Positions 52,274-64,000 of a DNA stretch of 64,000 nucleotides are shown one piece after another (positions within the stretch are counted from its first letter, which is position 1; each line of letters begins with the position of its first letter). The stretch is from Candidatus Firestoneibacteriota bacterium (GTDB lineage Bacteria > Oederibacteriota > D2-FULL-39-29 > JBBTED01), in the NCBI GenBank assembly GCA_038042445.1, contig JBBTED010000067.1, positions 5,310-69,309 of the forward strand, written 5' to 3'. The notes under the pieces were generated by a model that worked only from the letters and a program-made list of their open reading frames with translations, ran no database searches and was not told the origin of the DNA. Position numbers and translations under genes: made by a program.

Positions 52274-52328
52274 TTTATAATTCGCTAACAAACGTTAAAA
52301 TTAGATAATAATAAATAAAAATACTTGA

Positions 52329-52357
52329 CAAACGATAATATATGTGGTATAATTACA
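52329..52357 (+). promoter_or_regulatory. Consensus sigma70 promoter TTGACA-17-(TG)TATAAT immediately upstream of the deoR-like gene. It predicts a leaderless or near-leaderless transcript.
   Basis: cTTGACAaacgataatatatgtggTATAATtacatat ATG was read directly. Confidence 0.5.
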
Positions 52358-52360
52358 TAT

Positions 52361-53143
52361 ATGATTGATAATAAAATGTTTCCAGAAGAAAGAAGGCAGA
52401 AAATTCTTACCATTGTTAATAATAATGGTAGGGTGGATGTTTTGGAACTCGCTAATGAATTTAAAGCTTCTGTTGCTACAATTCGGACGGATTTAAATTA
52501 TCTTGCAGTTAATGGGGATATTAAACGAACACATGGTGGGGCTATTTTACTAAAACGCAGTAATATTGTTGAAAAGGAAATACCTGTAATTGAGAAAGAA
52601 AATATTGCTATTGAAGGAAAAATAAAAATGGCAAAAGCAGCACTTGAATTTATTGAAAATAAACAAAGTATATTTTTAGATATAGGTAGCACTGTATATC
52701 AATTTGCCAAGTTACTTTCTAATAAACATGGATTAAGTATAATAACGAATTCATTTCGTATTGCCAATGAAGTTAGCAGATATTCGGATAAAGAGCTTAT
52801 TTTTATTGGTGGGGTATTTAGAGAAAAAACACAAGCAACATCTGGTCCATTAGCAATGAAAGTTTTAGAAGAAATCTATGTTCATACTTTTTTTATGTCA
52901 GTAAGTGGCATAGATTTTAAAAATGGTTTAACTACTTCACATATTTCTGAAGCAGAAATAAAAAAGAAAATGATAGAGAAAGCACAAAAAGTAATTGTGT
53001 TAGCAGATAGTTCAAAATTTAATAAAGTTGATTTTGCACGGGTGTGTGCTATTACAGATGTAGATATAATAATTACAGATAATATTTCTAAGGAAAATGA
53101 AGCTTCAATAAAAGATTTAGGTGTGAAATTGATAATAGCATAG
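52361..53143 (+). CDS. DeoR/GlpR-family transcriptional regulator (N-terminal HTH plus sugar-phosphate-binding DeoR-C domain)
   Basis: RRQKILTIVNNNGRVDVLELANEFKASVATIRTDLNYL. The start was moved downstream of the promoter that lies inside the ORF-track call. Confidence 0.7.
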   Translation: MIDNKMFPEERRQKILTIVNNNGRVDVLELANEFKASVATIRTDLNYLAVNGDIKRTHGGAILLKRSNIVEKEIPVIEKENIAIEGKIKMAKAALEFIENKQSIFLDIGSTVYQFAKLLSNKHGLSIITNSFRIANEVSRYSDKELIFIGGVFREKTQATSGPLAMKVLEEIYVHTFFMSVSGIDFKNGLTTSHISEAEIKKKMIEKAQKVIVLADSSKFNKVDFARVCAITDVDIIITDNISKENEASIKDLGVKLIIA

Positions 53144-53198
53144 AGAATTAAGAAAAATAACCAATTAGATAAGGTAATGTCAAAAGCAGTATGAAAGG

Positions 53199-53252
53199 TA
53201 GTCGCAGGCTTTAGCCTGCGGTTTTTCTTCGCAAGCTAAAGCTTGCGGCTAC
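53199..53252. repeat. Two hairpin repeats, GTAGTCGCAGGCTTTAGCCTGCG followed by GTTTTT and CGCAAGCTAAAGCTTGCGGCTACC. The first is terminator-like.
   Basis: Same family as 18381 and 43600. Confidence 0.6.
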
Positions 53253-53304
53253 CAAGGCATTAAAAACTTTTGACAATACGTTAGATAAAAGGGGGGATTT
53301 CCAA

Positions 53305-53817
53305 GTGAAAAAAGAAGCAATAACTGTTATAAAAGCAAGGCGTTCTGTTAGAGCATTTAAAAAGGAAATAATAGCTAAAGATATTATAGAAGATATTATA
53401 GATTGTGGGAGATTAGCTCCTACAGCTAATAATATACAGCCTTGGCAATTTGTTGTGGTGACAGATGTAGGAAAACGCGAGCATATTGCAGAAATGACTG
53501 ATTACGGCGGGTTTATTGCTGATGCTCCTGTATGTATTGTAGTATTTTGTGAAAATACCAAGTATTTTTTAGAAGATGGTTGTGCTGCTGTTGAAAACAT
53601 ATTGTTAGCTGTAGAATCTTATGGATTAGGAGCATGTTGGGTAGCTGGAGATAAAAAGAGTTATGCAGAGGAAATAAAACGATTTTTGAAGGTGCCAGAT
53701 AATTATAAATTAGTAGCGTTAATACCAATAGGTTATCCAGCACATATTTCTTCCTATGCTGGTTTCAAGAAGCCATTAGACAAAGTGTTACACTGGGAGG
53801 AATTTGGAAACAAATAG
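53305..53817 (+). CDS. Nitroreductase-family protein
   Basis: RRSVRAF, the FMN-binding pattern, and length 170 aa. Confidence 0.75.
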   Translation: MKKEAITVIKARRSVRAFKKEIIAKDIIEDIIDCGRLAPTANNIQPWQFVVVTDVGKREHIAEMTDYGGFIADAPVCIVVFCENTKYFLEDGCAAVENILLAVESYGLGACWVAGDKKSYAEEIKRFLKVPDNYKLVALIPIGYPAHISSYAGFKKPLDKVLHWEEFGNK

Positions 53818-54796
53818 TGATATGAAAAAAAATAAAGAACAATTTTTAGGATTAGATTGTGGAGGAACCAATATTAAAATTGCTCTTGTAGATTCAGAAG
53901 GTGAAATACTTAAAAGTGCTATTGAACCTATTAGTTACAAACAATCGCCACAGAAAGTGCTTAAAAATATTACAAGCTGTGTTCAACATTTTATGGACAA
54001 GAATTGCACAAGTAAAATTAAAGGTTTAGGTATTGGAGTTGCAGCAGAAGTAGACCAGAAAAATGGAATTATACTCAATGCAACTAATTTGGGATGGAGA
54101 AATGTTCCCATCGCTGATTTTTTTACAAAAGAACTGGGTATTCCCATAAATGTAGAAAATGATTCGCATTGTGCAGCATGGGGATCTTATTGCCTTGATG
54201 CTAAAAAAAAATGCAGCACTTTAATTTGTTTGACATTAGGAACAGGTGTAGGCGGTGGTATTATTATAGGTGGTAAATTATACAGAGGGCCAAATGGATT
54301 AGCTGGATACATTGGACATATGTCTATTTCATATTCCGGGCGTGTTTGCAGATGTGGTAGTATAGGTTGTTTGGAATCTATGGTTGGTGCATGGGCATTA
54401 AGCCAGACAGTAAAAGAAAGATGTTCAAAAAACTCCTTTCCAATTTTAAGAAAATTATTACGTATAGACAAACAATTTAAGATAACACCTGAATTGATTG
54501 CTGAAGCTGCAATAAATGGAGACTGTGATTGTCAGAAATTGTGGAATGAAACAGGTAAATATTTAGGTATTGCCTTAGGAAGTCTTGCCAACATTTTTAA
54601 TCCGGAGAAAATAATTCTTTGTGGTGGTATATCTAAAGCAGGTGTGCTTTTCTTAAAACCTATGCTGGATACTTTTAAAAAACAAGTATTTAAAACTATA
54701 TTTCAATATACTGAAGTTTCTATTTCAAAATATACTGATAAAATTGGTGTTGTTGGTGCTGCTCTATTATTTATGGATGTTATATATGAAAGATAA
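53804..54796 (+). CDS. ROK-family sugar kinase (glucokinase/N-acetylhexosamine kinase-like)
   Basis: LGLDCGGTNIKIALVD and the zinc motif CRCGSIGCLES. Confidence 0.8.
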   Translation: METNSDMKKNKEQFLGLDCGGTNIKIALVDSEGEILKSAIEPISYKQSPQKVLKNITSCVQHFMDKNCTSKIKGLGIGVAAEVDQKNGIILNATNLGWRNVPIADFFTKELGIPINVENDSHCAAWGSYCLDAKKKCSTLICLTLGTGVGGGIIIGGKLYRGPNGLAGYIGHMSISYSGRVCRCGSIGCLESMVGAWALSQTVKERCSKNSFPILRKLLRIDKQFKITPELIAEAAINGDCDCQKLWNETGKYLGIALGSLANIFNPEKIILCGGISKAGVLFLKPMLDTFKKQVFKTIFQYTEVSISKYTDKIGVVGAALLFMDVIYER

Positions 54797-55748
54797 AATT
54801 TTGCAGGCAAATTTAGTATCTCCAGAAAAAATATTTTATTTTATTGGTGTTACTACAGAGAAATCTTCTATTATGAAAATTTTTCCAAAATGGATTGAAT
54901 TTTTAAAATTAGACAATTGTATAATCAAAGGAGTAAATTTTAAACCACATGATGAAGCTGGGGCATATAGAAAAATTGTAGAATATATTAAGAATGACAA
55001 ACATTCTTTTGGTGCTCTTGTTACAACACATAAAATAGATTTGCTTAAAAGTTGTTATGACCTTTTTGAAGAATTAGATTATTATGCACAAGTTATGGGA
55101 GAAATTAGTTGCATTTCTAAATGTGATGGGAAACTGATTGGGCACGCTAAAGATCCTATAACCAGTGGTTTGGCTTTAGAAAAATTTTTACCTAAAGACT
55201 ATTGGTTGAAAAACAAAAGCGAAGTTTTTGTTATAGGAGCAGGTGGGTCATCAATAGCAATTACTTCATATCTAATGAATAAAGAGAGAGGTATAAATAA
55301 ACCATCAAAAATTATTATATCAAATAGAAGCAGTGGGAGATTAGAAGAAATACAAAAAATACATAAAAAACTTATGTCAGATGTTTCTTGCGAATATTAT
55401 TTAACTCCAATACCGCAAGACAATGATAAAATTCTCAATAGTTTGAAACCGTATTCACTTGTAATTAATGCTACAGGTCTTGGAAAAGATGCTGCAGGTT
55501 CACCAATTACAGATAATGCTATTTTTCCGGAAAATGGAATAGCATGGGATTTTAATTATAGGGGAAACCTTATTTTTTTAGATAAGGCACGTGCGCAACA
55601 AGAAGAAAAAAAATTGCATATTGAAGATGGCTGGGTGTATTTCATATATGGCTGGACTAAAGTAATAGCAGAAGTTTTTCACATTGAAATTCCATCAGCA
55701 GGTGAAAAATTCAATAAAATCTGTGAAATTGCAGAAAAGTTCAGATAA
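54786..55748 (+). CDS. Shikimate/quinate dehydrogenase-family oxidoreductase
   Basis: GALVTTHKIDL (the G..VT.P.K motif), the Rossmann motif VFVIGAGGSSIA, and about 320 aa. Confidence 0.55.
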   Translation: MKDKILQANLVSPEKIFYFIGVTTEKSSIMKIFPKWIEFLKLDNCIIKGVNFKPHDEAGAYRKIVEYIKNDKHSFGALVTTHKIDLLKSCYDLFEELDYYAQVMGEISCISKCDGKLIGHAKDPITSGLALEKFLPKDYWLKNKSEVFVIGAGGSSIAITSYLMNKERGINKPSKIIISNRSSGRLEEIQKIHKKLMSDVSCEYYLTPIPQDNDKILNSLKPYSLVINATGLGKDAAGSPITDNAIFPENGIAWDFNYRGNLIFLDKARAQQEEKKLHIEDGWVYFIYGWTKVIAEVFHIEIPSAGEKFNKICEIAEKFR

Positions 55749-55763
55749 TTAATAGGAGATAAT

Positions 55764-56330
55764 ATGATAAAAAAATCGATTAGACCATTTGGTATGGATT
55801 TTGATTTGGAAAAAGGTATAATGAAAAATCCGGAGAAAATTATAGTTAGAAAAGCATCAGATATGCGTGGGTATTATACTGATGAAAAGGCATTGGAAAA
55901 AATTATCAAAAAGCAGGCGGATCCGATCCATTATGAGGTTTTTGAAAAACCTGTGCCTGAAGAAGATGGGCATTTATATTTTTGTATTAGTAAGCTTTGG
56001 CCTGGTTTAGTAGGGAATGAATATTTTATGACTAAAGGGCATTATCATAAAGTTGAAAAGACTGCTGAAATTTATCTTTGCCTTCGGGGAGAAGGATATA
56101 TGTTAATGAAAACTGAAGAGGGAAAATGTGTTGCAGAACCTATGAAAAAAAACAAAATGATTTATGTTCCGCCTTATTGGGCACATCGTTCAGTAAATAT
56201 TGGAAATACGCCATTAATATCTTTATGTGTTTATCCTGCCCAAGCAGGACATAATTATAAAGATATAGAAAAAAAGGGATTTCCAAAAAGAATCTATAAT
56301 AGAAAAGGAAAAATTTGCATAGATGAATAA
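55764..56330 (+). CDS. Cupin-type (archaeal-type) glucose-6-phosphate isomerase
   Basis: TKGHYHKVEKTAEIY matches the cPGI T.GH.H...E.Y signature. The cupin fold is consistent with a length of about 188 aa. Confidence 0.6.
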   Translation: MIKKSIRPFGMDFDLEKGIMKNPEKIIVRKASDMRGYYTDEKALEKIIKKQADPIHYEVFEKPVPEEDGHLYFCISKLWPGLVGNEYFMTKGHYHKVEKTAEIYLCLRGEGYMLMKTEEGKCVAEPMKKNKMIYVPPYWAHRSVNIGNTPLISLCVYPAQAGHNYKDIEKKGFPKRIYNRKGKICIDE

Positions 56331-57255
56331 GAATGGGAAAATTTTGATTACTCCGAGGTCTTTAACCAAATCAGGACATCCAGCTCTTGATACACTTAAA
56401 AAAGCAGGATATGAGTTAGTATTTTCTACTCCTGGAAAACAACCTGACGAGAAAGAATTAATAGAATTACTTTCTGATTGTGTTGGGTATCTTGCCGGTG
56501 TTGAGAAAATAAGTGCAGAAGTATTAAAAGGTGCAGGAAAGTTAAAAGTGATAAGTAGAAATGGAACAGGTATAGATAATATTGATTTAAAAACTGCTAA
56601 GGAATTAAACATTAAAATATGTCGTGCAGAAGAAGCAAATACTAGAGGGGTTGCTGAATTAACTATTGGATTGATTTTTAGCCTGGTTCGGTATATTCCT
56701 TTTAGTGATAGAAAGATGAAAGAGGAAAAATGGGAAAGAAAAGAAGGTATTGAGTTGCAGAATCGTACACTTGGCATTATTGGTTGTGGTAAAATTGGCA
56801 GACAAGTTGCGATGATGGCACTTAGTTTAGGAATGAAAGTTGTAGCGTATGATGTTATAAGAGATAGTTCTTTTTTGCCCGCTGGAGATTTTAGTTGGGC
56901 TGATTTAAATACATTATTAAAACAGTCAGATATAATTAGTTTGCATTGTCCACCCTTGAAAAATGGAGAATCTTTAATTAATAAAGATATAATCGAAAAA
57001 ATGAAAAATGGGGTTTATTTAATTAATGCAGCAAGAGCAGATTTAATAGATGAAAAAGCTGTGTTAAAAGCACTTTTTGAAAATAAAATTGCAGGTTTTG
57101 CATTGGATGTTTTTAAAAAAGAACCTCCTGTAGATAATCCATTAGTTTTGCATGAGCGGGTTATTGCAACACCACATATTGGTGGATATACAAATGAAAG
57201 TATTTCAAGAGCTACTCAAATAGCAGTAAATAATTTATTAAAGTATTTAAGTTAA
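56323..57255 (+). CDS. D-isomer-specific 2-hydroxyacid dehydrogenase (SerA/GyaR-like)
   Basis: GIIGCGKIGRQVA, catalytic R/E/H positions and ATPHIGG. Confidence 0.8.
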   Translation: MNKNGKILITPRSLTKSGHPALDTLKKAGYELVFSTPGKQPDEKELIELLSDCVGYLAGVEKISAEVLKGAGKLKVISRNGTGIDNIDLKTAKELNIKICRAEEANTRGVAELTIGLIFSLVRYIPFSDRKMKEEKWERKEGIELQNRTLGIIGCGKIGRQVAMMALSLGMKVVAYDVIRDSSFLPAGDFSWADLNTLLKQSDIISLHCPPLKNGESLINKDIIEKMKNGVYLINAARADLIDEKAVLKALFENKIAGFALDVFKKEPPVDNPLVLHERVIATPHIGGYTNESISRATQIAVNNLLKYLS

Positions 57256-57330
57256 AGAATAATGGTAAAAGCTCACTGAAGTCTGTTATTGCGATTGTGT
57301 TACAATGGTAATTGTAGTTTTTGGCAGTTT

Positions 57331-57422
57331 GTCATTCCCGCAGTAGTAAGCGGGAATCCACTGTTTTTAAAATATTGCTAAAACAAGACTCTGGATTCCC
57401 GATTAAAGAATTCGGGAATGAC
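57331..57422. repeat. MITE-like element of about 92 bp: GTCATTCCCGCagtagtaaGCGGGAATCCA ... TGGATTCCCGAttaaagaaTTCGGGAATGAC
   Basis: Same two-hairpin inverted architecture as 18801-18893. Confidence 0.7.
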
Positions 57423-57459
57423 AAAGAAGTAAACGGTATTCAGTGAATATTTAAAAATA

Positions 57460-58323
57460 ATGATTGAAATTTCCGAACAGAATGTTGATGGAAATCCACT
57501 TGAAGTAATGGCAAGTGTTACTAAAGGGACAGATAAACTCGCGTTATACTGGATAGGACAGGCGGGTTTTGCTTTTTGTTTCAAAAACAAATTAGGATTA
57601 ATTGATCCCTATCTTTCTGATTATTTAGCTAAAAAATATAAAGATACAAAAGTGTCACATATTCGTATGATGTCTGCGCCTTTAAATTCTGTGAATATTA
57701 GAAATTTGGATTTAGTATTTTGCAGCCATTCACATTCTGACCATATGGATCCAGAAACATTGCGAATTTTGGCTAAACATAATACCAATTGTAAATTTGT
57801 AATTCCAAAAGCAGTAATGGATTTAGCTATAAAAATAGGTTTGGACGAGGCGAACATTCAGGCTGTAAATGCAGGAGAAAAAATTTCTTATAATTCTGAT
57901 ATTAAGATAGAAGTCATACCTGCTTCTCACGAAGAAATAAAATTTAATAAAAAAAAAGAGCATTATTTTCTTGGATTTATACTCAAATTTGGTAATATAA
58001 CTATATATCATTCCGGGGATTGTGTTTTATATGATGGGCTTAAAGATATTCTAAAGACAAAAAATATTGATATCGCTTTATTGCCAATAAATGGACGGGA
58101 TTTATATAGGAAAAAATTAAATATTCTTGGAAACTTTACATTTGAAGAAGCGTTGGATTTATGTAGTTATTGTAAAATTCCAACTATGTTTTCTCACCAT
58201 TTCGGTATGTTTGCTTTTAATACTGTGAATGTAAAAGAAATAAATAAAAAAATAAAAAATCTAAAAAATGGCATAAAATGTTTTTTGCCTGACATAAAGA
58301 AAACATATATTATTTCAAAATGA
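57460..58323 (+). CDS. MBL-fold metallo-hydrolase (possible lactonase)
   Basis: The HSHSDHMD (HxHxDH) motif. Confidence 0.7.
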   Translation: MIEISEQNVDGNPLEVMASVTKGTDKLALYWIGQAGFAFCFKNKLGLIDPYLSDYLAKKYKDTKVSHIRMMSAPLNSVNIRNLDLVFCSHSHSDHMDPETLRILAKHNTNCKFVIPKAVMDLAIKIGLDEANIQAVNAGEKISYNSDIKIEVIPASHEEIKFNKKKEHYFLGFILKFGNITIYHSGDCVLYDGLKDILKTKNIDIALLPINGRDLYRKKLNILGNFTFEEALDLCSYCKIPTMFSHHFGMFAFNTVNVKEINKKIKNLKNGIKCFLPDIKKTYIISK

Positions 58324-59252
58324 AAACAATAGCGACTATAGGCAGTATTATTGCAGATTTGGCAGTAAAAACTCCGAGAGTGCCAGTTTCTGGTGAAAAT
58401 GTATTAGCTCATAGTTTTAAAATTGGGCCAGGTGGAAAAGGTGCAAATGCAAGTGTCGGAGTGGCACGGATGGGTGCATCTTCAATTTTAGTCGGATGTA
58501 TAGGAAATGACGATTTTGGAAAAATGGAATTATCTGCTCTTAAATCTGAAGGTGTTAATATTAAAGGAGTTAAAGTTGATTCAAATGCGTCAACTGGGGT
58601 AGCTATAATTATGGTGGATGACAATAGTGAAAATACTATTTTAGTAGTACTTGGTGCTAATGCTAATTTGTATCCTGAAGATGTCCAAAAGGCATTACAA
58701 CCTCACTGGAAAAAATTAGATGCTATACTGGTAAATTTTGAAATTCCAGAAGATGTTGTAGCAAAAGTTTGTGAAGAAGGATATAACCATAATGTTCCTG
58801 TGATAGTGGATGCAGGTCCACCGCGTAATTATAGTCCTAAGACCTGGAGAAAAGCTAAAATTATATCACCTAATAGATTAGAAATTGAAACATTAGTTGG
58901 ATATAAGATAAAAAATGATTCTATGTTATTAAAAGCTGCAAAGCAGATTTTAAGTTATGGTCCAGAAGTTGTAGTTATTAAACGTGGTAAGAATGGAATA
59001 CTTTTATGTAGTGCAAATGAGACTATAGTCATTCCAGCATATAAAGTTAAACCTGTAGATACAACAGGTGCTGGTGATGCTTTTACTTCAGCTTTTACTG
59101 TAGCTGTTGCTGAAGGTTGTTCATTGCAGGAAGCAGTGCGTTTTGGCAATGTTGCTGGTGCAATTGCAGTAACACGTTTTGGAACTTTACCTGCTATGCC
59201 AACACGTGCAGAAATAGAAAAATTTAAACAGAAAATCAAATGGAAAAAATAA
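58320..59252 (+). CDS. PfkB-family carbohydrate kinase, ribokinase-like
   Basis: GGKGANASV and DTTGAGDAF motifs. Confidence 0.8.
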   Translation: MKTIATIGSIIADLAVKTPRVPVSGENVLAHSFKIGPGGKGANASVGVARMGASSILVGCIGNDDFGKMELSALKSEGVNIKGVKVDSNASTGVAIIMVDDNSENTILVVLGANANLYPEDVQKALQPHWKKLDAILVNFEIPEDVVAKVCEEGYNHNVPVIVDAGPPRNYSPKTWRKAKIISPNRLEIETLVGYKIKNDSMLLKAAKQILSYGPEVVVIKRGKNGILLCSANETIVIPAYKVKPVDTTGAGDAFTSAFTVAVAEGCSLQEAVRFGNVAGAIAVTRFGTLPAMPTRAEIEKFKQKIKWKK

Positions 59253-59956
59253 AAATTTCACCATCACTTATGTGTGTAAATTATTTACATTTAGAAAGAA
59301 TTATTAAAGAATTGGAATCTGCAGGTGTAGATATGTTGCATTTTGATATTATGGATGGCCATTTTGTACCTAATTTTACAATGGGCCCTGATATTTTGAA
59401 ATCAGTACGTGAGATAACATCACTTCCATTTGATATACATCTGATGATATCAGAACCAGATAAATACATACAACAGTTTGTAGAAGTAAGCAATTTAGCA
59501 CAAGGAAATACAGAAAATATAATTTCTGTTCATATAGAAAGTTGTATTCATTTGCATAGAGTAATTCAGGTAATAAAAAATTGCGGAGCCAAAGCTTCAG
59601 TGGCATTAAATCCTACTACTTCTTTAAGTACTTTGGATTATATTTTAGAGGACATATCAATGGTTTTACTTATGATGGTTGAACCAGGTTTTGCCGGCCA
59701 GAAATTAATATCGGGTGTTATTACAAAAATTAAGGATCTAAAAAAAATAATTGATACAAAAAAAGTAAATATTGACATAGAAGTAGATGGAAATGTAAGT
59801 TATGAAAATATTCCAATAATGGTAGAAGCAGGCGCTAATGTATTAGTAGCAGGCACATCCAGTCTTTTTAAAAAAGATATTAAAATAAAAGATGGAATTA
59901 AAAGAATTCAAGAATTGGTAGCTTCATACATAAAGGACAATGAAGAAAATGTGTAA
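59240..59956 (+). CDS. Ribulose-phosphate 3-epimerase-family protein (RPE/AlsE-like)
   Basis: SLMCVNYLHLERIIKELESAGVDMLHFDIMDGHFVPNFTMGP. Confidence 0.8.
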   Translation: MEKIKISPSLMCVNYLHLERIIKELESAGVDMLHFDIMDGHFVPNFTMGPDILKSVREITSLPFDIHLMISEPDKYIQQFVEVSNLAQGNTENIISVHIESCIHLHRVIQVIKNCGAKASVALNPTTSLSTLDYILEDISMVLLMMVEPGFAGQKLISGVITKIKDLKKIIDTKKVNIDIEVDGNVSYENIPIMVEAGANVLVAGTSSLFKKDIKIKDGIKRIQELVASYIKDNEENV

Positions 59957-60030
59957 AAATATAGATAATAAGAAATTCAAATGTTTCCTGAATTTACCGA
60001 TTAGTGTAATAAAAATGAAGGAGGGAGTAT

Positions 60031-60702
60031 ATGGCAAAGCATAGCAGGGTAAAAGTCATTAATACAATATTAGAAATAGGACTAATCCCTGTTTTTAATA
60101 ATGATAATTTAGAAACGTCAAAAAAAATTGTTAGTGCTTGTGTTGATGGTGGAGCTAAAGTGGTTGAATTTACAAATAGGGGTGATTTTGGATGGAAAGT
60201 ATTTGGTGGATTAGTTGAATATTTTTCCAAAGAAAAACCAGAAGTTATTCTTGGAGTTGGTTCAATTGTTGATGCACCTACAGCTGCTCTTTATATTGCA
60301 AATGGCGCTAATTTTATAGTAGGACCTGTTTTAAATGAAGAAGTGGCGAGATTGTGCAATCGCAGAAAAATACTTTACAGTCCTGGTTGTGGAACTGCTA
60401 CAGAGATATCAAAAGCTGAGGAATGGGGTGTTGAAATATGTAAAGTATTTCCCGGAGATTCAGTTGGTGGACCTGAGTTTGTAAAAAGTATATTGGGTCC
60501 TTCTCCTTGGACAAGAATTATGCCAACAGGTGGTGTGGATGTGACAAAAGAAAATATTGAAAAATGGTTTAAAGCAGGTGTTTCCTGTGTTGGAATTGGT
60601 TCAAAATTGATTACAAAAGAAATTGTTAAAGAAGGAAAATTTAAAGAATTAACAAATAAAGTAATAGAAACTTTGAAATTGATAAAAGAAGCAAAAGTAT
60701 AA
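60031..60702 (+). CDS. eda: KDPG/KHG aldolase (Eda family)
   Basis: The Schiff-base Lys context CKVFPG and the TGGV motif. Confidence 0.8.
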   Translation: MAKHSRVKVINTILEIGLIPVFNNDNLETSKKIVSACVDGGAKVVEFTNRGDFGWKVFGGLVEYFSKEKPEVILGVGSIVDAPTAALYIANGANFIVGPVLNEEVARLCNRRKILYSPGCGTATEISKAEEWGVEICKVFPGDSVGGPEFVKSILGPSPWTRIMPTGGVDVTKENIEKWFKAGVSCVGIGSKLITKEIVKEGKFKELTNKVIETLKLIKEAKV

Positions 60703-60765: not shown

Positions 60766-60850
60766 TTTCTAAAAATTATTTGATATATTTAAAACGTTCG
60801 CCTATGCGGGCGTTTTTTTATTAACAGAACATTTTAAAACCAATAAAAAA

Positions 60851-62065
60851 ATGGAACAGTGGAAGAAGAATTTATATGCATTATGGGGAATGCAGTTTGT
60901 TAGTGTGCTTGGTATGAGTATGATTTTGCCATTTATACCATTTTACATACGAACTTTAGGAATTACAAATTTAAATGATGTGTCTTTGTGGAGTGGTATA
61001 ACTATGGGTATAGGATTTATTTTTTCTGCGATTTTTTCACCTATATGGGGTGATTTTAGTGATAGATATGGCAGAAAAGTGATGATAATTCGTGCTGTTT
61101 TTGCAATAGCAATACTGAATTTATTGATGGCGTTTGCTCGCAATGTATATGATTTATTGATACTGAGGATATTGCAGGGATGTTTTGGTGGGTTTGTGGG
61201 TGCATCAGCAGCTTTAGTTTCAACATCTGTTCCACAACAAAAAATGGGTTATGCATTTGGTATACTTCAAACATCTATGATTGCAGGTAGTATTGGTGGC
61301 CCATTTATTGGTGGTGTCCTTGCAGATTTAGTTGGGTATCGCTTTGTATTTATTTTAACAGCAACTTTTATTTTTATAGGTGGATTGATTGTGACAATAA
61401 TGGTTAAAGAGGAAAAACATCTTTTAAGTAAAGAAAAAGGCGGAGGAATTATTGAAAATATAAAATCTGTTTTTGCATCTAAACAATTATTCGTAATAAT
61501 GTTAGTGCAATGTGTTATACAGATAGCTGTAATGGTTTTACAGCCAATACTACCTTTATTTATATCAAGTTTTCAAAAGGATGTTAAATATGTAGCAACT
61601 ATAACAGGTTTAGTATTTAGTTCAACTGCAATTACAACTTTATTTGCATCTTCTTTTTGGGGAAAAAAAGGAGATGTTTTAGGTCATAAAAAATCACTTT
61701 CTGTTTGTTTGCTTGGTTCTGCAATTTTAATGGCTCCACATTTTTTCATAAAAAATATCGGACAGCTTTTATTACTAAGAATGGGGCTTGGAGTTTTTGT
61801 TGCTGGAATTTCTCCATCAACTCAAACAATGATTACTGCATATATTCCAAGAAAAAAAAGAGGTGGAATGATGGGTATTGCTAATAGTTTTTCAATGATA
61901 GGTATGGCAATGGGCCCTTTATTAGGAGGTTTTCTTGGAGCTAAATTTGGATTAAGAATTCCATTTCTTGTTACGAGCGCATTATTATTTATTACATTCT
62001 GGCTTGTCTATAAACTTGTTAAAGAACCAGTTAATACTGAGTTTATAGCTACAGGAATTGAATGA
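60851..62065 (+). CDS. MFS transporter (12 TM)
   Basis: The GDFSDRYGRK motif between TM2 and TM3. Confidence 0.75.
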   Translation: MEQWKKNLYALWGMQFVSVLGMSMILPFIPFYIRTLGITNLNDVSLWSGITMGIGFIFSAIFSPIWGDFSDRYGRKVMIIRAVFAIAILNLLMAFARNVYDLLILRILQGCFGGFVGASAALVSTSVPQQKMGYAFGILQTSMIAGSIGGPFIGGVLADLVGYRFVFILTATFIFIGGLIVTIMVKEEKHLLSKEKGGGIIENIKSVFASKQLFVIMLVQCVIQIAVMVLQPILPLFISSFQKDVKYVATITGLVFSSTAITTLFASSFWGKKGDVLGHKKSLSVCLLGSAILMAPHFFIKNIGQLLLLRMGLGVFVAGISPSTQTMITAYIPRKKRGGMMGIANSFSMIGMAMGPLLGGFLGAKFGLRIPFLVTSALLFITFWLVYKLVKEPVNTEFIATGIE

Positions 62066-62100
62066 AAAAAGACAAAGCAATAAAAAAATTGGAGGTAAAA

Positions 62101-63693
62101 ATGTATAAAATTATTTTAATACTTGTGTGTTTTTATGTGATTGTTTGTTCACGAGAGGGATTTGCTCAGAAAAATGTTGATTCTGAAAAATGTTTTAGTT
62201 GTCATGCTGAAGTTAAGGAATTGTGGAGTTTAGGGAGACATAAACAACTTAATTGCACACAATGCCATAGTTTTTTAAATGAACATAATGAAGATTTTGA
62301 GAAAAAACCTGTTACAAATTTTGATCCTATGGTTTGTGGTAAATGCCACAAGAATCAATTTGAAACATTTTTTGAGGTTAATCTTAAAAAGCCAGCAAGA
62401 ATTGAAAAATCTTTGTTGACAGAGCGTTCTCCAAATCCATTTTGGGACAAATTGATGATGGGGCATGGTTTTACAAAAGAGCACAATGTTCCAAGAAGTC
62501 ATGCTTATATGCTTTTGGATCATTTGGTTGTAGATAGAGCTTATGGTGGCAGATTCCAGCCTAAAAACGGATGGGCATATACTATTACAAATACTCCTGT
62601 TAAAGTATGGGATGTTCTTGAAGATAAATATCCTGATACAAAAGAACACAAATCATTTATTCCTGAAAGTGCTGCTGCAGCAAATCCTGTATGTTTGCAA
62701 TGTAAAACTAATGATAGTATTTTGAAATGGAAATATATGGGAGAAAAAGATAAAAGTGCAAAATGGGATAGAACATCTAATCCTGTAGAATATGTAAAAG
62801 ATTTGCAAAATATTATAAGTTGTGTTCATTGTCATGACCCTCATGCTACAAAACCAAGAATTGTCCGAGATGGTTTAATTCATGCACTAACCCGTGATGA
62901 AAAAGATACATTATGGCATAATGATACTAAACAAACTCCAATTAAAGTTGTTGATTTCAGGGATTTCAGAAAAATAGCGATTCTTGATAAATATGATGCA
63001 AAACTTATGTGTGGACAATGTCATGTGGAGTATAACTGTAATCCAGGAGTAAATCCTGTTACAGGCGAAAAGGTTGGGTTCAATGACATAAGGACAAATC
63101 ATTTTCCGCTTAAAAATGTTTTTCAGATTTATGAGCATTATAACAAGCTTGAGTTTCGTGATTTCAAACATAGTTTGACTGGTGGGTTGCTTTTTAAGGC
63201 TCAGCATCCTGAGACTGAAGTATTCTGGAATTCAAAGCATGATAAAGCCGGGGTAAGCTGTAATAATTGCCATATGCCAAAAATAAAAGACAAAGATGGA
63301 AAAATTTTCACATCACATTGGCAGACAAGCCCAAAAAATTACATAAAAGAAACGTGTTTGAAATGTCATCCGCAATGGACGAATGAGCAGGCAGTGTATG
63401 CAATTGATTCAATTAAAAATCATATTAAAGGTAAGATGAGAAAGGCAGAATTTTGGCTGAGCAATTTAATTGATAAAATTGTAGAATCCAAAAAAACTGG
63501 AATAGATGAAAAAATTATTAAAGAAGCACAGGAACAACATCAAAAAGCCCATATTCTATGGGAATGGTGGACTGCAGAAAATTCAGATGGCTTCCACAAT
63601 CCAGACCAAGCAAGAGAGTCTTTAACTAAATCCGTAGAAGAATCCAAAAAAGGCATAGACCTATTAACAAAAGCTATATCAGAGAAAAAATAA
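62101..63693 (+). CDS. nrfA: NrfA-type cytochrome c nitrite reductase homolog with an N-terminal triheme extension: 7 CXXCH plus 1 CXXCK motif
   Basis: RBS GGAGGT. An N-terminal TM/signal helix. The motifs are CFSCH, CTQCH, CGKCH, CLQCK (aligning to E. coli CWSCK after the PRSHAY block), CVHCH, CGQCHVEY, CNNCHMP and CLKCH. KAQHPE and the Ca-site residues are conserved. Confidence 0.75.
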   Translation: MYKIILILVCFYVIVCSREGFAQKNVDSEKCFSCHAEVKELWSLGRHKQLNCTQCHSFLNEHNEDFEKKPVTNFDPMVCGKCHKNQFETFFEVNLKKPARIEKSLLTERSPNPFWDKLMMGHGFTKEHNVPRSHAYMLLDHLVVDRAYGGRFQPKNGWAYTITNTPVKVWDVLEDKYPDTKEHKSFIPESAAAANPVCLQCKTNDSILKWKYMGEKDKSAKWDRTSNPVEYVKDLQNIISCVHCHDPHATKPRIVRDGLIHALTRDEKDTLWHNDTKQTPIKVVDFRDFRKIAILDKYDAKLMCGQCHVEYNCNPGVNPVTGEKVGFNDIRTNHFPLKNVFQIYEHYNKLEFRDFKHSLTGGLLFKAQHPETEVFWNSKHDKAGVSCNNCHMPKIKDKDGKIFTSHWQTSPKNYIKETCLKCHPQWTNEQAVYAIDSIKNHIKGKMRKAEFWLSNLIDKIVESKKTGIDEKIIKEAQEQHQKAHILWEWWTAENSDGFHNPDQARESLTKSVEESKKGIDLLTKAISEKK

Positions 63694-63713
63694 TGAGGAG
63701 ATAAATTCTACTT

Positions 63714-64000
63714 GTGTTAAAACTTTTACTAAAGATATTTTCGACGCCAAAAAATATAATTTTTATAAATCCAGATTACTATAATCAAATAGAAATTATC
63801 ACTATTGGAGAAAAGATACAAGACAAGGTAAAACGATTATTTCGAGGATCTCTTGCTATCAGACAGGTAGATGCTGGTTCTGATAATGCATGTGAACAGG
63901 AGCTTGTTGCTCTATCTAATGCTTTTTATGATATTGAGCGTTTTGGTATTCATTTCGTTGCTTCTCCAAAACATGCGGATATGCTTATGGTGACTGGTCC
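63714..64000 (+). CDS. NuoB/HycG-like (NADH dehydrogenase 20 kDa / group-4 hydrogenase small subunit) protein, 3'-truncated, lacking two of the first three conserved FeS-cluster cysteines. The start is uncertain (GTG at 63714?).
   Basis: GSLAIRQVDAGSDNACEQELVALSNAFYDIERFGIHFVASPKHADMLMVTG aligns with HycG RVDCGGCNGCEIEI...DAERFGI..VPSPRHADILLFTG. The first and second Cys are replaced by A and D. Confidence 0.5.
   Translation, partial: MLKLLLKIFSTPKNIIFINPDYYNQIEIITIGEKIQDKVKRLFRGSLAIRQVDAGSDNACEQELVALSNAFYDIERFGIHFVASPKHADMLMVTG

Follow-up and report, generated by a model that had tools for sequence, protein, structure and literature searches.

A gene very probably encoding an octaheme nitrite reductase in a Candidatus Firestonebacteria groundwater bacterium

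The architecture of the octaheme cytochrome c nitrite reductases (ONRs) has reportedly been known since 2006-2009, the structure of the Thioalkalivibrio enzyme (TvNiR) is said to date from 2008/2009, and that of its counterpart from Trichlorobacter ammonificans (TaNiR) from 2024. TvNiR belongs to a haloalkaliphilic sulfur oxidiser, and the shorter pentaheme NrfA is usually encoded together with nrfH or nrfBCD. ONRs have been defined by eight heme-binding sites in the order three CXXCH, one CXXCK and four CXXCH, by a histidine between sites 6 and 7, and by a dependence on calcium that is reported for all of them (PMC10716430); a covalent Tyr-Cys bond is a further feature of the family (PMC12285233), and TaNiR is reported to be the enzyme that ammonifies nitrite in vivo in T. 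ammonificans (PMC12142623). Our subject is a gene, here called onr, near the end of a 64 kb stretch of DNA (the window) from a metagenome-assembled genome (MAG) of Candidatus Firestonebacteria, the contigs of which came from Hainich groundwater metagenomes. We hold, with high confidence, that it encodes a periplasmic ONR of the TvNiR/TaNiR family in this groundwater bacterium.

The heme motifs of the 530-aa protein, three CXXCH, then CLQCK, then four further CXXCH, match the published ONR order (PMC10716430) exactly. All eight had been listed in a preliminary description of this DNA, and their positions (Table 1) were reproduced to the residue. Since a CXXCH occurred, singly, in only two other stop-to-stop segments (at least 50 aa, six frames, the whole window), such a cluster is not the product of chance. 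Translation of onr could begin at either of two in-frame codons: the ATG at 62062, chosen by some gene callers, gives 543 aa and overlaps the stop of the preceding major facilitator superfamily (MFS) gene as ATGA, and the ATG at 62101 gives 530 aa. The latter, which was also the start proposed in the preliminary description, was adopted because a GGAGG precedes it at a 5-nt spacing and because the NCBI entry for the identical sequence (MEK6646352.1, named ammonia-forming cytochrome c nitrite reductase) has the 530-aa form; the mature protein is the same from either start. A recent horizontal acquisition of onr was considered and set aside, there being no island signature and the composition of the gene (GC 33%, and 0.23 at third codon positions) fitting the rest of the window.

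It was the searches against proteins of solved structure that placed the gene product in its family. Over nearly its whole length it matched the T. ammonificans ONR (8rv0, E 2.7e-173, query residues 29-527) and TvNiR (2ot4, E 1.1e-167, residues 23-527, with about 20 more TvNiR entries near E 1e-167), whereas the pentaheme NrfAs reached E 1e-32 to 1e-15 over about residues 197-527 only. CLQCK, the fourth site, is the Lys-ligated catalytic heme, in agreement with its earlier identification, and residues 1-124, searched by themselves, retrieved the N-terminal domains of solved ONRs at E 7e-21 to 1.5e-14. The Pfam model PF02335 (Cytochrom_C552) matched at E 8e-57 across residues 188-527, so that the C-terminal 420 aa once thought to align to NrfA are indeed homologous to it in part, but over about 340 aa (roughly residues 188-527) rather than the full 420. 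The NCBIfam models for NrfA itself, TIGR03152 and NF008339, stayed well below their cutoffs (107.6 and 126 bits, where 692.5 and 595 are required), and, as judged from its sequence, the protein is homologous to NrfA, yet is no NrfA equivalog.

The predicted fold told the same story. An AlphaFold2 model (predicted local distance difference test score, pLDDT, 77.5; predicted template modelling score, pTM, 0.78) was compared with the PDB by Foldseek, and TvNiR and TaNiR superposed over 504-525 columns with TMq 0.83-0.85 and TMt 0.84-0.89, while NrfA superposed partially (TMq 0.44-0.58). The model ends in long helices, predicted at residues 428-465, 470-488 and 501-529; in both NrfA and ONR the long C-terminal helices form interfaces.

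The residues of the active site are likewise those of an ONR. When 32 ONR homologues were aligned, the eight heme motifs and the equivalents of Arg146, Glu310, Tyr311, Cys313, Lys366, Gln368 and His369 showed no variation, and His369 sits between heme sites 6 and 7. Within VEYNCNPG the cysteine follows two residues after the catalytic tyrosine, as Cys305 follows Tyr303 in TvNiR, the pair that bears the covalent bond of the family. The site is of the Ca2+ type, having the Glu and Gln ligands and not the xxRH motif of Ca-independent enzymes; in the TvNiR structure the residues of the Ca2+ site are Glu, Lys and Gln. Nothing apparent in the sequence speaks against ONR membership, and the suggestion of an octaheme NrfA variant, one of two offered in the preliminary description, was correct in the sense that full-length PDB matches, fold and signature residues all lead to the known ONR family, and not to a new arrangement.

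Table 1. Coordinates, in the 64 kb window, of onr, the features of its product and the neighbouring elements (a hyphen in the signal peptide marks the predicted cleavage position; aa, amino acid position of the first residue of a motif)
Feature	Position	Strand	Remarks
onr, octaheme cytochrome c nitrite reductase precursor	62101..63693	+	530 aa plus stop
Shine-Dalgarno GGAGG	62091..62095	+	5 nt before ATG 62101; direct sequence reading
Predicted Sec signal peptide, aa 1-22 (MYK / IILILVCFYVIVC / SREGFA-Q)	62101..62166	+	
N-terminal triheme domain, aa 23-120, hemes 1-3	62167..62460	+	
Heme 1, CFSCH	62191..62205	+	aa 31
Heme 2, CTQCH	62254..62268	+	aa 52
Heme 3, CGKCH	62335..62349	+	aa 79
NrfA-like catalytic domain, aa 121-530, hemes 4-8	62461..63690	+	Ends with three long C-terminal helices
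Arg146 (VVDRAYGG)	62536..62538	+	Catalytic Arg131 of TvNiR; PDB alignment
Heme 4, CLQCK	62692..62706	+	aa 198; catalytic, Lys-ligated
Heme 5, CVHCH	62821..62835	+	aa 241
Heme 6, CGQCH	63010..63024	+	aa 304
Glu310-Tyr311-Asn312-Cys313	63028..63039	+	TvNiR Glu302 (Ca2+ ligand), catalytic Tyr303, Cys305; PDB alignment
Lys366-Ala-Gln368-His369 (KxQH)	63196..63207	+	TvNiR Lys358/Gln360 (Ca2+ site), catalytic His361
Heme 7, CNNCH	63259..63273	+	aa 387
Heme 8, CLKCH	63355..63369	+	aa 419
Intrinsic-terminator-like hairpin, 11-bp stem and T run	60791..60816	+	After the 2-keto-3-deoxy-6-phosphogluconate (KDPG) aldolase gene; consensus scan
MFS transporter, MdtG/DHA1 efflux type, 404 aa	60851..62065	+	NF007372 MdtG E 5e-83, below cutoff
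NuoB/MbhJ-like gene, 5' part, cut by the window end	63714..64000	+	First of a six-gene cassette of the energy-converting hydrogenase-related (Ehr) type

By analogy with its relatives, the precursor would be exported by Sec, lose its hydrophobic segment after GFA22 and have eight hemes c covalently attached in the periplasm, and it would then oligomerise through the long C-terminal helices, TvNiR being a hexamer. Electrons would enter at the bis-His hemes and pass down the closely packed heme chain, in which the three N-terminal hemes would lengthen the five-heme core of the NrfA type, to heme 4. There, with the aid of Arg146, of Tyr311 cross-linked to Cys313, of His369 and of a Ca2+ ion, nitrite would be reduced to ammonium in a six-electron reaction from which intermediates are not expected to be released.

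Some points weigh against this assignment, or at least against its physiological part. The heme-binding N-terminal domain of the model has a moderate pLDDT of 50-75, which is to be expected of a model without cofactors; respiration versus detoxification as the role of ONRs is unsettled in the literature (PMC10949509); and neither an electron donor nor a CXXCK heme lyase was seen in the window or in about 7.8 kb downstream of it, which leaves the physiological role of the ONR uncertain in what is apparently a fermentative or acetogenic host. The enzyme may act in respiratory ammonification, in the detoxification of nitrite or in assimilation, between which the sequence alone does not discriminate.

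The family to which the protein belongs is large. A protein database held 2848 homologues at E <= 1e-10, and the best 120 of these were all at least 59% identical to the query, mostly annotated as NrfA/c552, and with one exception (119 of the 120) covered at least 88% of it. Species-representative genomes yielded 417 relatives that span Omnitrophota (the best, at 78% identity), Planctomycetota, Nitrospirota, Elusimicrobiota, Desulfobacterota, Wallbacteria and others. The surroundings of onr (10 kb to either side) were compared in the best 80 loci, where, by counts that are approximate since the calling of open reading frames (ORFs) is crude in high-GC loci, there were 22 multiheme ORFs other than the ONRs, four of them weakly similar to NrfH (best E 5e-8). 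Thus an adjacent nrfH is the exception among ONRs, and doing without one is a family trait. The preliminary description had remarked on the lack of nrfH or nrfBCD beside the gene and on the MFS gene upstream, and both remarks were borne out: a six-frame motif scan of the whole window (segments of at least 50 aa) found no nrfH, nrfB, nrfBCD or second multiheme ORF, and the upstream gene had an MdtG-type match. With so few NrfH-like neighbours in the 80 ONR loci, the missing nrfH is no peculiarity of this one (see also PMC6606698).

If there is no NrfH, the genes downstream might be thought to take its place. Between the onr stop and the start of a NuoB/MbhJ-like gene lie 20 bp (63694-63713) that include GAGGAG at 63695-63700, and on a longer contig (L084 10001-17200) the cassette that begins there was seen in full, the NuoB-like gene being followed by HyfB-like, NuoH-like, small membrane, HyfF-like and fused NuoC/NuoD-like large subunits. 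A reading in which ONR is co-transcribed with, and functionally coupled to, this Ehr cassette as an electron-entry or energy-coupling partner replacing NrfH draws on the short gap and shared strand, and on a consensus scan for terminators (5 sites found against 1.6 expected), which predicted none between the MFS gene, onr and the NuoB-like gene and a good one ahead of the MFS gene. It draws as well on the spacers of 170-285 bp upstream of the cassette in three other lineages (L087 7717-8000, L089 7830-8000 and L091 7802-8000), by comparison with which the cassette here may need read-through from onr. We nonetheless consider it very unlikely. In those three lineages the cassette is self-contained and stands behind SRP54, ATP synthase and hypothetical proteins, and no cytochrome; and by tblastn a NuoB-like or HyfB-like gene lay within 10 kb in none of 80 other ONR loci, including that of the closest relative at 78% identity, so that a conserved synteny of onr with NuoB/HyfB-like genes was rejected.

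The subunits themselves also argue against such a coupling. Three of the four [4Fe-4S] cysteines of the NuoB/MbhJ-like subunit are replaced by Asp, with Asp or Asn at these sites being common to essentially all of the 120 homologues listed as closest (many of them from Patescibacteria); both NiFe CxxC motifs of the fused NuoC/NuoD-like subunit are degenerate (ISGDSSFSH, SYSGNDL); and the cassette has no HycF/NuoI-like, heme or other redox subunit. With its Fe-S and NiFe cysteines lost, the complex has no visible means of passing electrons on, and still less of delivering them to the periplasm, and Ehr complexes lacking cofactors have already been described in bacteria of the candidate phyla radiation (CPR) (PMC7304191). 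We conclude that the adjacency is incidental, and Ehr is probably not a functional partner of the ONR, although read-through from MFS-onr into the cassette may occur here as a small oddity. That onr and Ehr are co-expressed and functionally linked, for example by ion translocation or quinone chemistry coupled to periplasmic nitrite reduction, we regard as slightly less probable still; were it true, such a partner would be without precedent among multiheme nitrite reductases, and it would give a first clue to what Ehr complexes do.

Beyond the cassette and convergent with it, about 3.5 kb past the end of the window (L084 17256-20543, minus strand), lie genes for a subunit of carbon monoxide dehydrogenase/acetyl-CoA synthase (CODH/ACS; CdhC/AcsB-type, 729 aa), a ferredoxin-like protein and a NuoF-like flavoprotein. 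This group of genes suggests an anaerobic metabolism of the Wood-Ljungdahl type in the host.

The other proposal of the preliminary description concerned the N-terminus, and was that an electron-entry module like NrfH had been fused to NrfA. On such a reading the N-terminus would be a quinol dehydrogenase of the NrfH/NapC type, anchored in the membrane, whose three hemes would be fed by menaquinol and which would make a separate NrfH unnecessary. In its favour, a hydrophobic helix (MYKIILILVCFYVIVCSREGFAQK) precedes the heme motifs, CXXCH motifs come close behind it, the window has no nrfH, and weak NrfH matches do exist over residues 5-57 (TIGR03153, E 0.0022, 18.1 bits; 2j7a_C, E 0.017). The 18.1 bits, however, stand against a cutoff of 134.2 and cover just the helix and the first heme motif, residues 1-124 match (as noted, to E 7e-21) an N-terminal domain that is soluble in the crystallised ONRs, NrfH has four hemes where this domain has three, and no NrfH chain appeared among the Foldseek matches in the PDB. 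Nor does the hydrophobic segment have the look of an anchor. It has an n-h-c layout and closes on SREGFA-QK, a site of the signal-peptidase type as read from the sequence; those homologues that have been crystallised have mature chains starting at the equivalents of residues 18-27; and in the AlphaFold2 model the N-terminus is an isolated helix (residues 2-17) followed by a low-confidence linker (16-22). On the strength of that site and of where the crystallised mature chains start, the segment looks like a signal peptide rather than an anchor, with cleavage probably after GFA22, and so of the two options left open in the preliminary description, a transmembrane or a signal helix, the second is favoured and the first is not.

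The history of the family has been read in the opposite direction from a fusion. Published phylogenetic and structural work groups the N-terminal module of ONR with that of cytochrome c554 type in the octaheme superfamily, and infers NrfA to have come from an ONR-like protein by loss of the three N-terminal hemes, as a truncated octaheme protein (PMC9250108), although an older fusion scenario is still cited in a review (PMC12285233). By sequence comparison of the kind that the preliminary description had proposed, the protein is an ONR from end to end and NrfA-like in its C-terminal part, with NrfH at the level of noise, and we consider the fusion highly improbable. The triheme domain would lengthen the electron wire as a soluble part of the enzyme and would not be a membrane module that oxidises quinol, and the three extra hemes and the missing nrfH are traits of the ONR family and no sign of a new fusion.

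Membership of another octaheme family with different chemistry, i.e., hydroxylamine oxidoreductase (HAO)/epsilon-Hao, octaheme tetrathionate reductase (OTR), MccA sulfite reductase or IhOCC, for which the eight hemes and some very weak matches could be cited (OcwA 6i5b, E 1.6e-6, and, with residues 1-124 as query, MccA and an HAO-like protein at E > 1), has next to no probability and is excluded by sequence and fold, since the catalytic heme here is a CXXCK at position 4, whereas those of HAO type are His-ligated (PMC8042395) and OTR has eight CXXCH motifs and a remote Lys (PMC12285233), since HAO/epsilon-Hao, OTR and MccA gave no PDB sequence match at E <= 0.01 apart from the OcwA match, and since the Foldseek TMq, which is 0.83-0.85 with ONR, comes to no more than 0.31 with OcwA and 0.18 with MccA.

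On the upstream side, the hairpin after the KDPG-aldolase gene is likely, from its sequence, to be the upstream boundary of a transcription unit that includes the MFS gene and onr. The MFS gene was considered as a nitrite/nitrate transporter of the NarK type and rejected, its best matches being efflux pumps of the MdtG/Tet type with no evident link to nitrite. Preceding it on the same strand (52300-60702, which corresponds to L084 91-6989) is a run of sugar-metabolism genes unrelated to nitrogen metabolism, namely ROK kinases, a glucose-6-phosphate isomerase-like cupin, a 2-hydroxyacid dehydrogenase, a PfkB kinase, a ribulose-phosphate 3-epimerase and a KDPG/KHG (2-keto-4-hydroxyglutarate) aldolase.

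To have no electron donor encoded alongside is usual for ONR genes, whose surroundings vary and in some loci hold nothing of relevance. Where the neighbours among the 80 loci compared were informative, they included NapA-like proteins accompanied by NapG and NapH, NapA with a small tetraheme cytochrome, a diheme cytochrome c with a subunit resembling heme-copper oxidases (and nitric oxide reductase, NOR), and an HAO-like octaheme protein; a further neighbour, known from the literature only, is the Rieske/cytochrome b complex encoded ahead of the ONR gene in Nitrospira moscoviensis (PMC6606698). In a Nitrospirota locus (L030 5761-11255), whose genes were those covered by the family-model scan of this module, the gene next after onr encodes a small protein with one heme and a "choice-of-anchor V" domain, and behind it come genes for an unusually long NapA-like protein and then for NapG- and NapH-like subunits. 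Similar gene sizes and order recur in L031, L033 and L047, and in part in L055, and L051 too has the NapA-like gene. These Nitrospirota molybdoenzymes (about 1109-1164 aa) contain large insertions and score well below the NapA cutoff. The arrangement looks like a compact nitrate-to-ammonium module with entry through a quinol dehydrogenase. Next to several ONR genes (L003 2853-4894, L076 from 11764 onward, and upstream of onr in L034 and L037), a membrane-anchored diheme cytochrome c is accompanied by a heme-copper-oxidase-like subunit of 443-460 aa, which has a weak CcoN match and is possibly an enzyme resembling nitric oxide reductase.

What the locus adds is mainly a matter of names, and it has little significance beyond annotation. 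Public pipelines call this protein and its relatives pentaheme "NrfA / c552", for which ONR is the correct label, and Candidatus Firestonebacteria is added to the phyla with onr. The gene suggests a groundwater anaerobe that would be able to reduce nitrite to ammonium. With no candidate donor encoded nearby, the locus brings the question of the ONR electron donor no closer.

Of the systems already described, the best match is TaNiR (8rv0, 8rvm and 8rxu), which aligns nearly without gaps over residues 29-527 and has the same eight heme motifs, the same catalytic residues and the same Tyr/Cys pair, at 50% identity and a Foldseek TMt of 0.89. About half of the residues differ, however, as do the hosts, an isolate of the Geobacterales in one case and a Firestonebacteria MAG in the other, and the genomic contexts, in that no genes of the nitrogen cycle lie near the gene here. 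TvNiR, from T. nitratireducens and T. paradoxus (2ot4, 3f29, 3sxq and others), follows closely with its TMq of 0.83-0.85. It shares the N-terminal triheme domain, the five-heme NrfA-like domain and the long C-terminal helices, and its Arg131, Glu302, Tyr303, Cys305, Gln360 and His361 are all conserved in the protein described here, from which it is set apart by short insertions, for example after heme 2 and around its own residues 262-277. Pentaheme NrfA is homologous to the C-terminal 340 or so residues and agrees with them in its CXXCK heme, its Ca2+ site, its three catalytic residues (Arg, Tyr and His) and the six-electron reaction that it carries out, but it has neither the three N-terminal hemes nor the Tyr-Cys link. 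The likeness to NrfH, NapC and CymA is superficial, consisting of an N-terminal hydrophobic helix and the closely spaced CXXCH motifs after it: those proteins are tetraheme quinol oxidases anchored in the membrane, whereas the Firestonebacteria protein has three hemes behind a signal peptide that is probably cleaved, and the soluble fold of an ONR.

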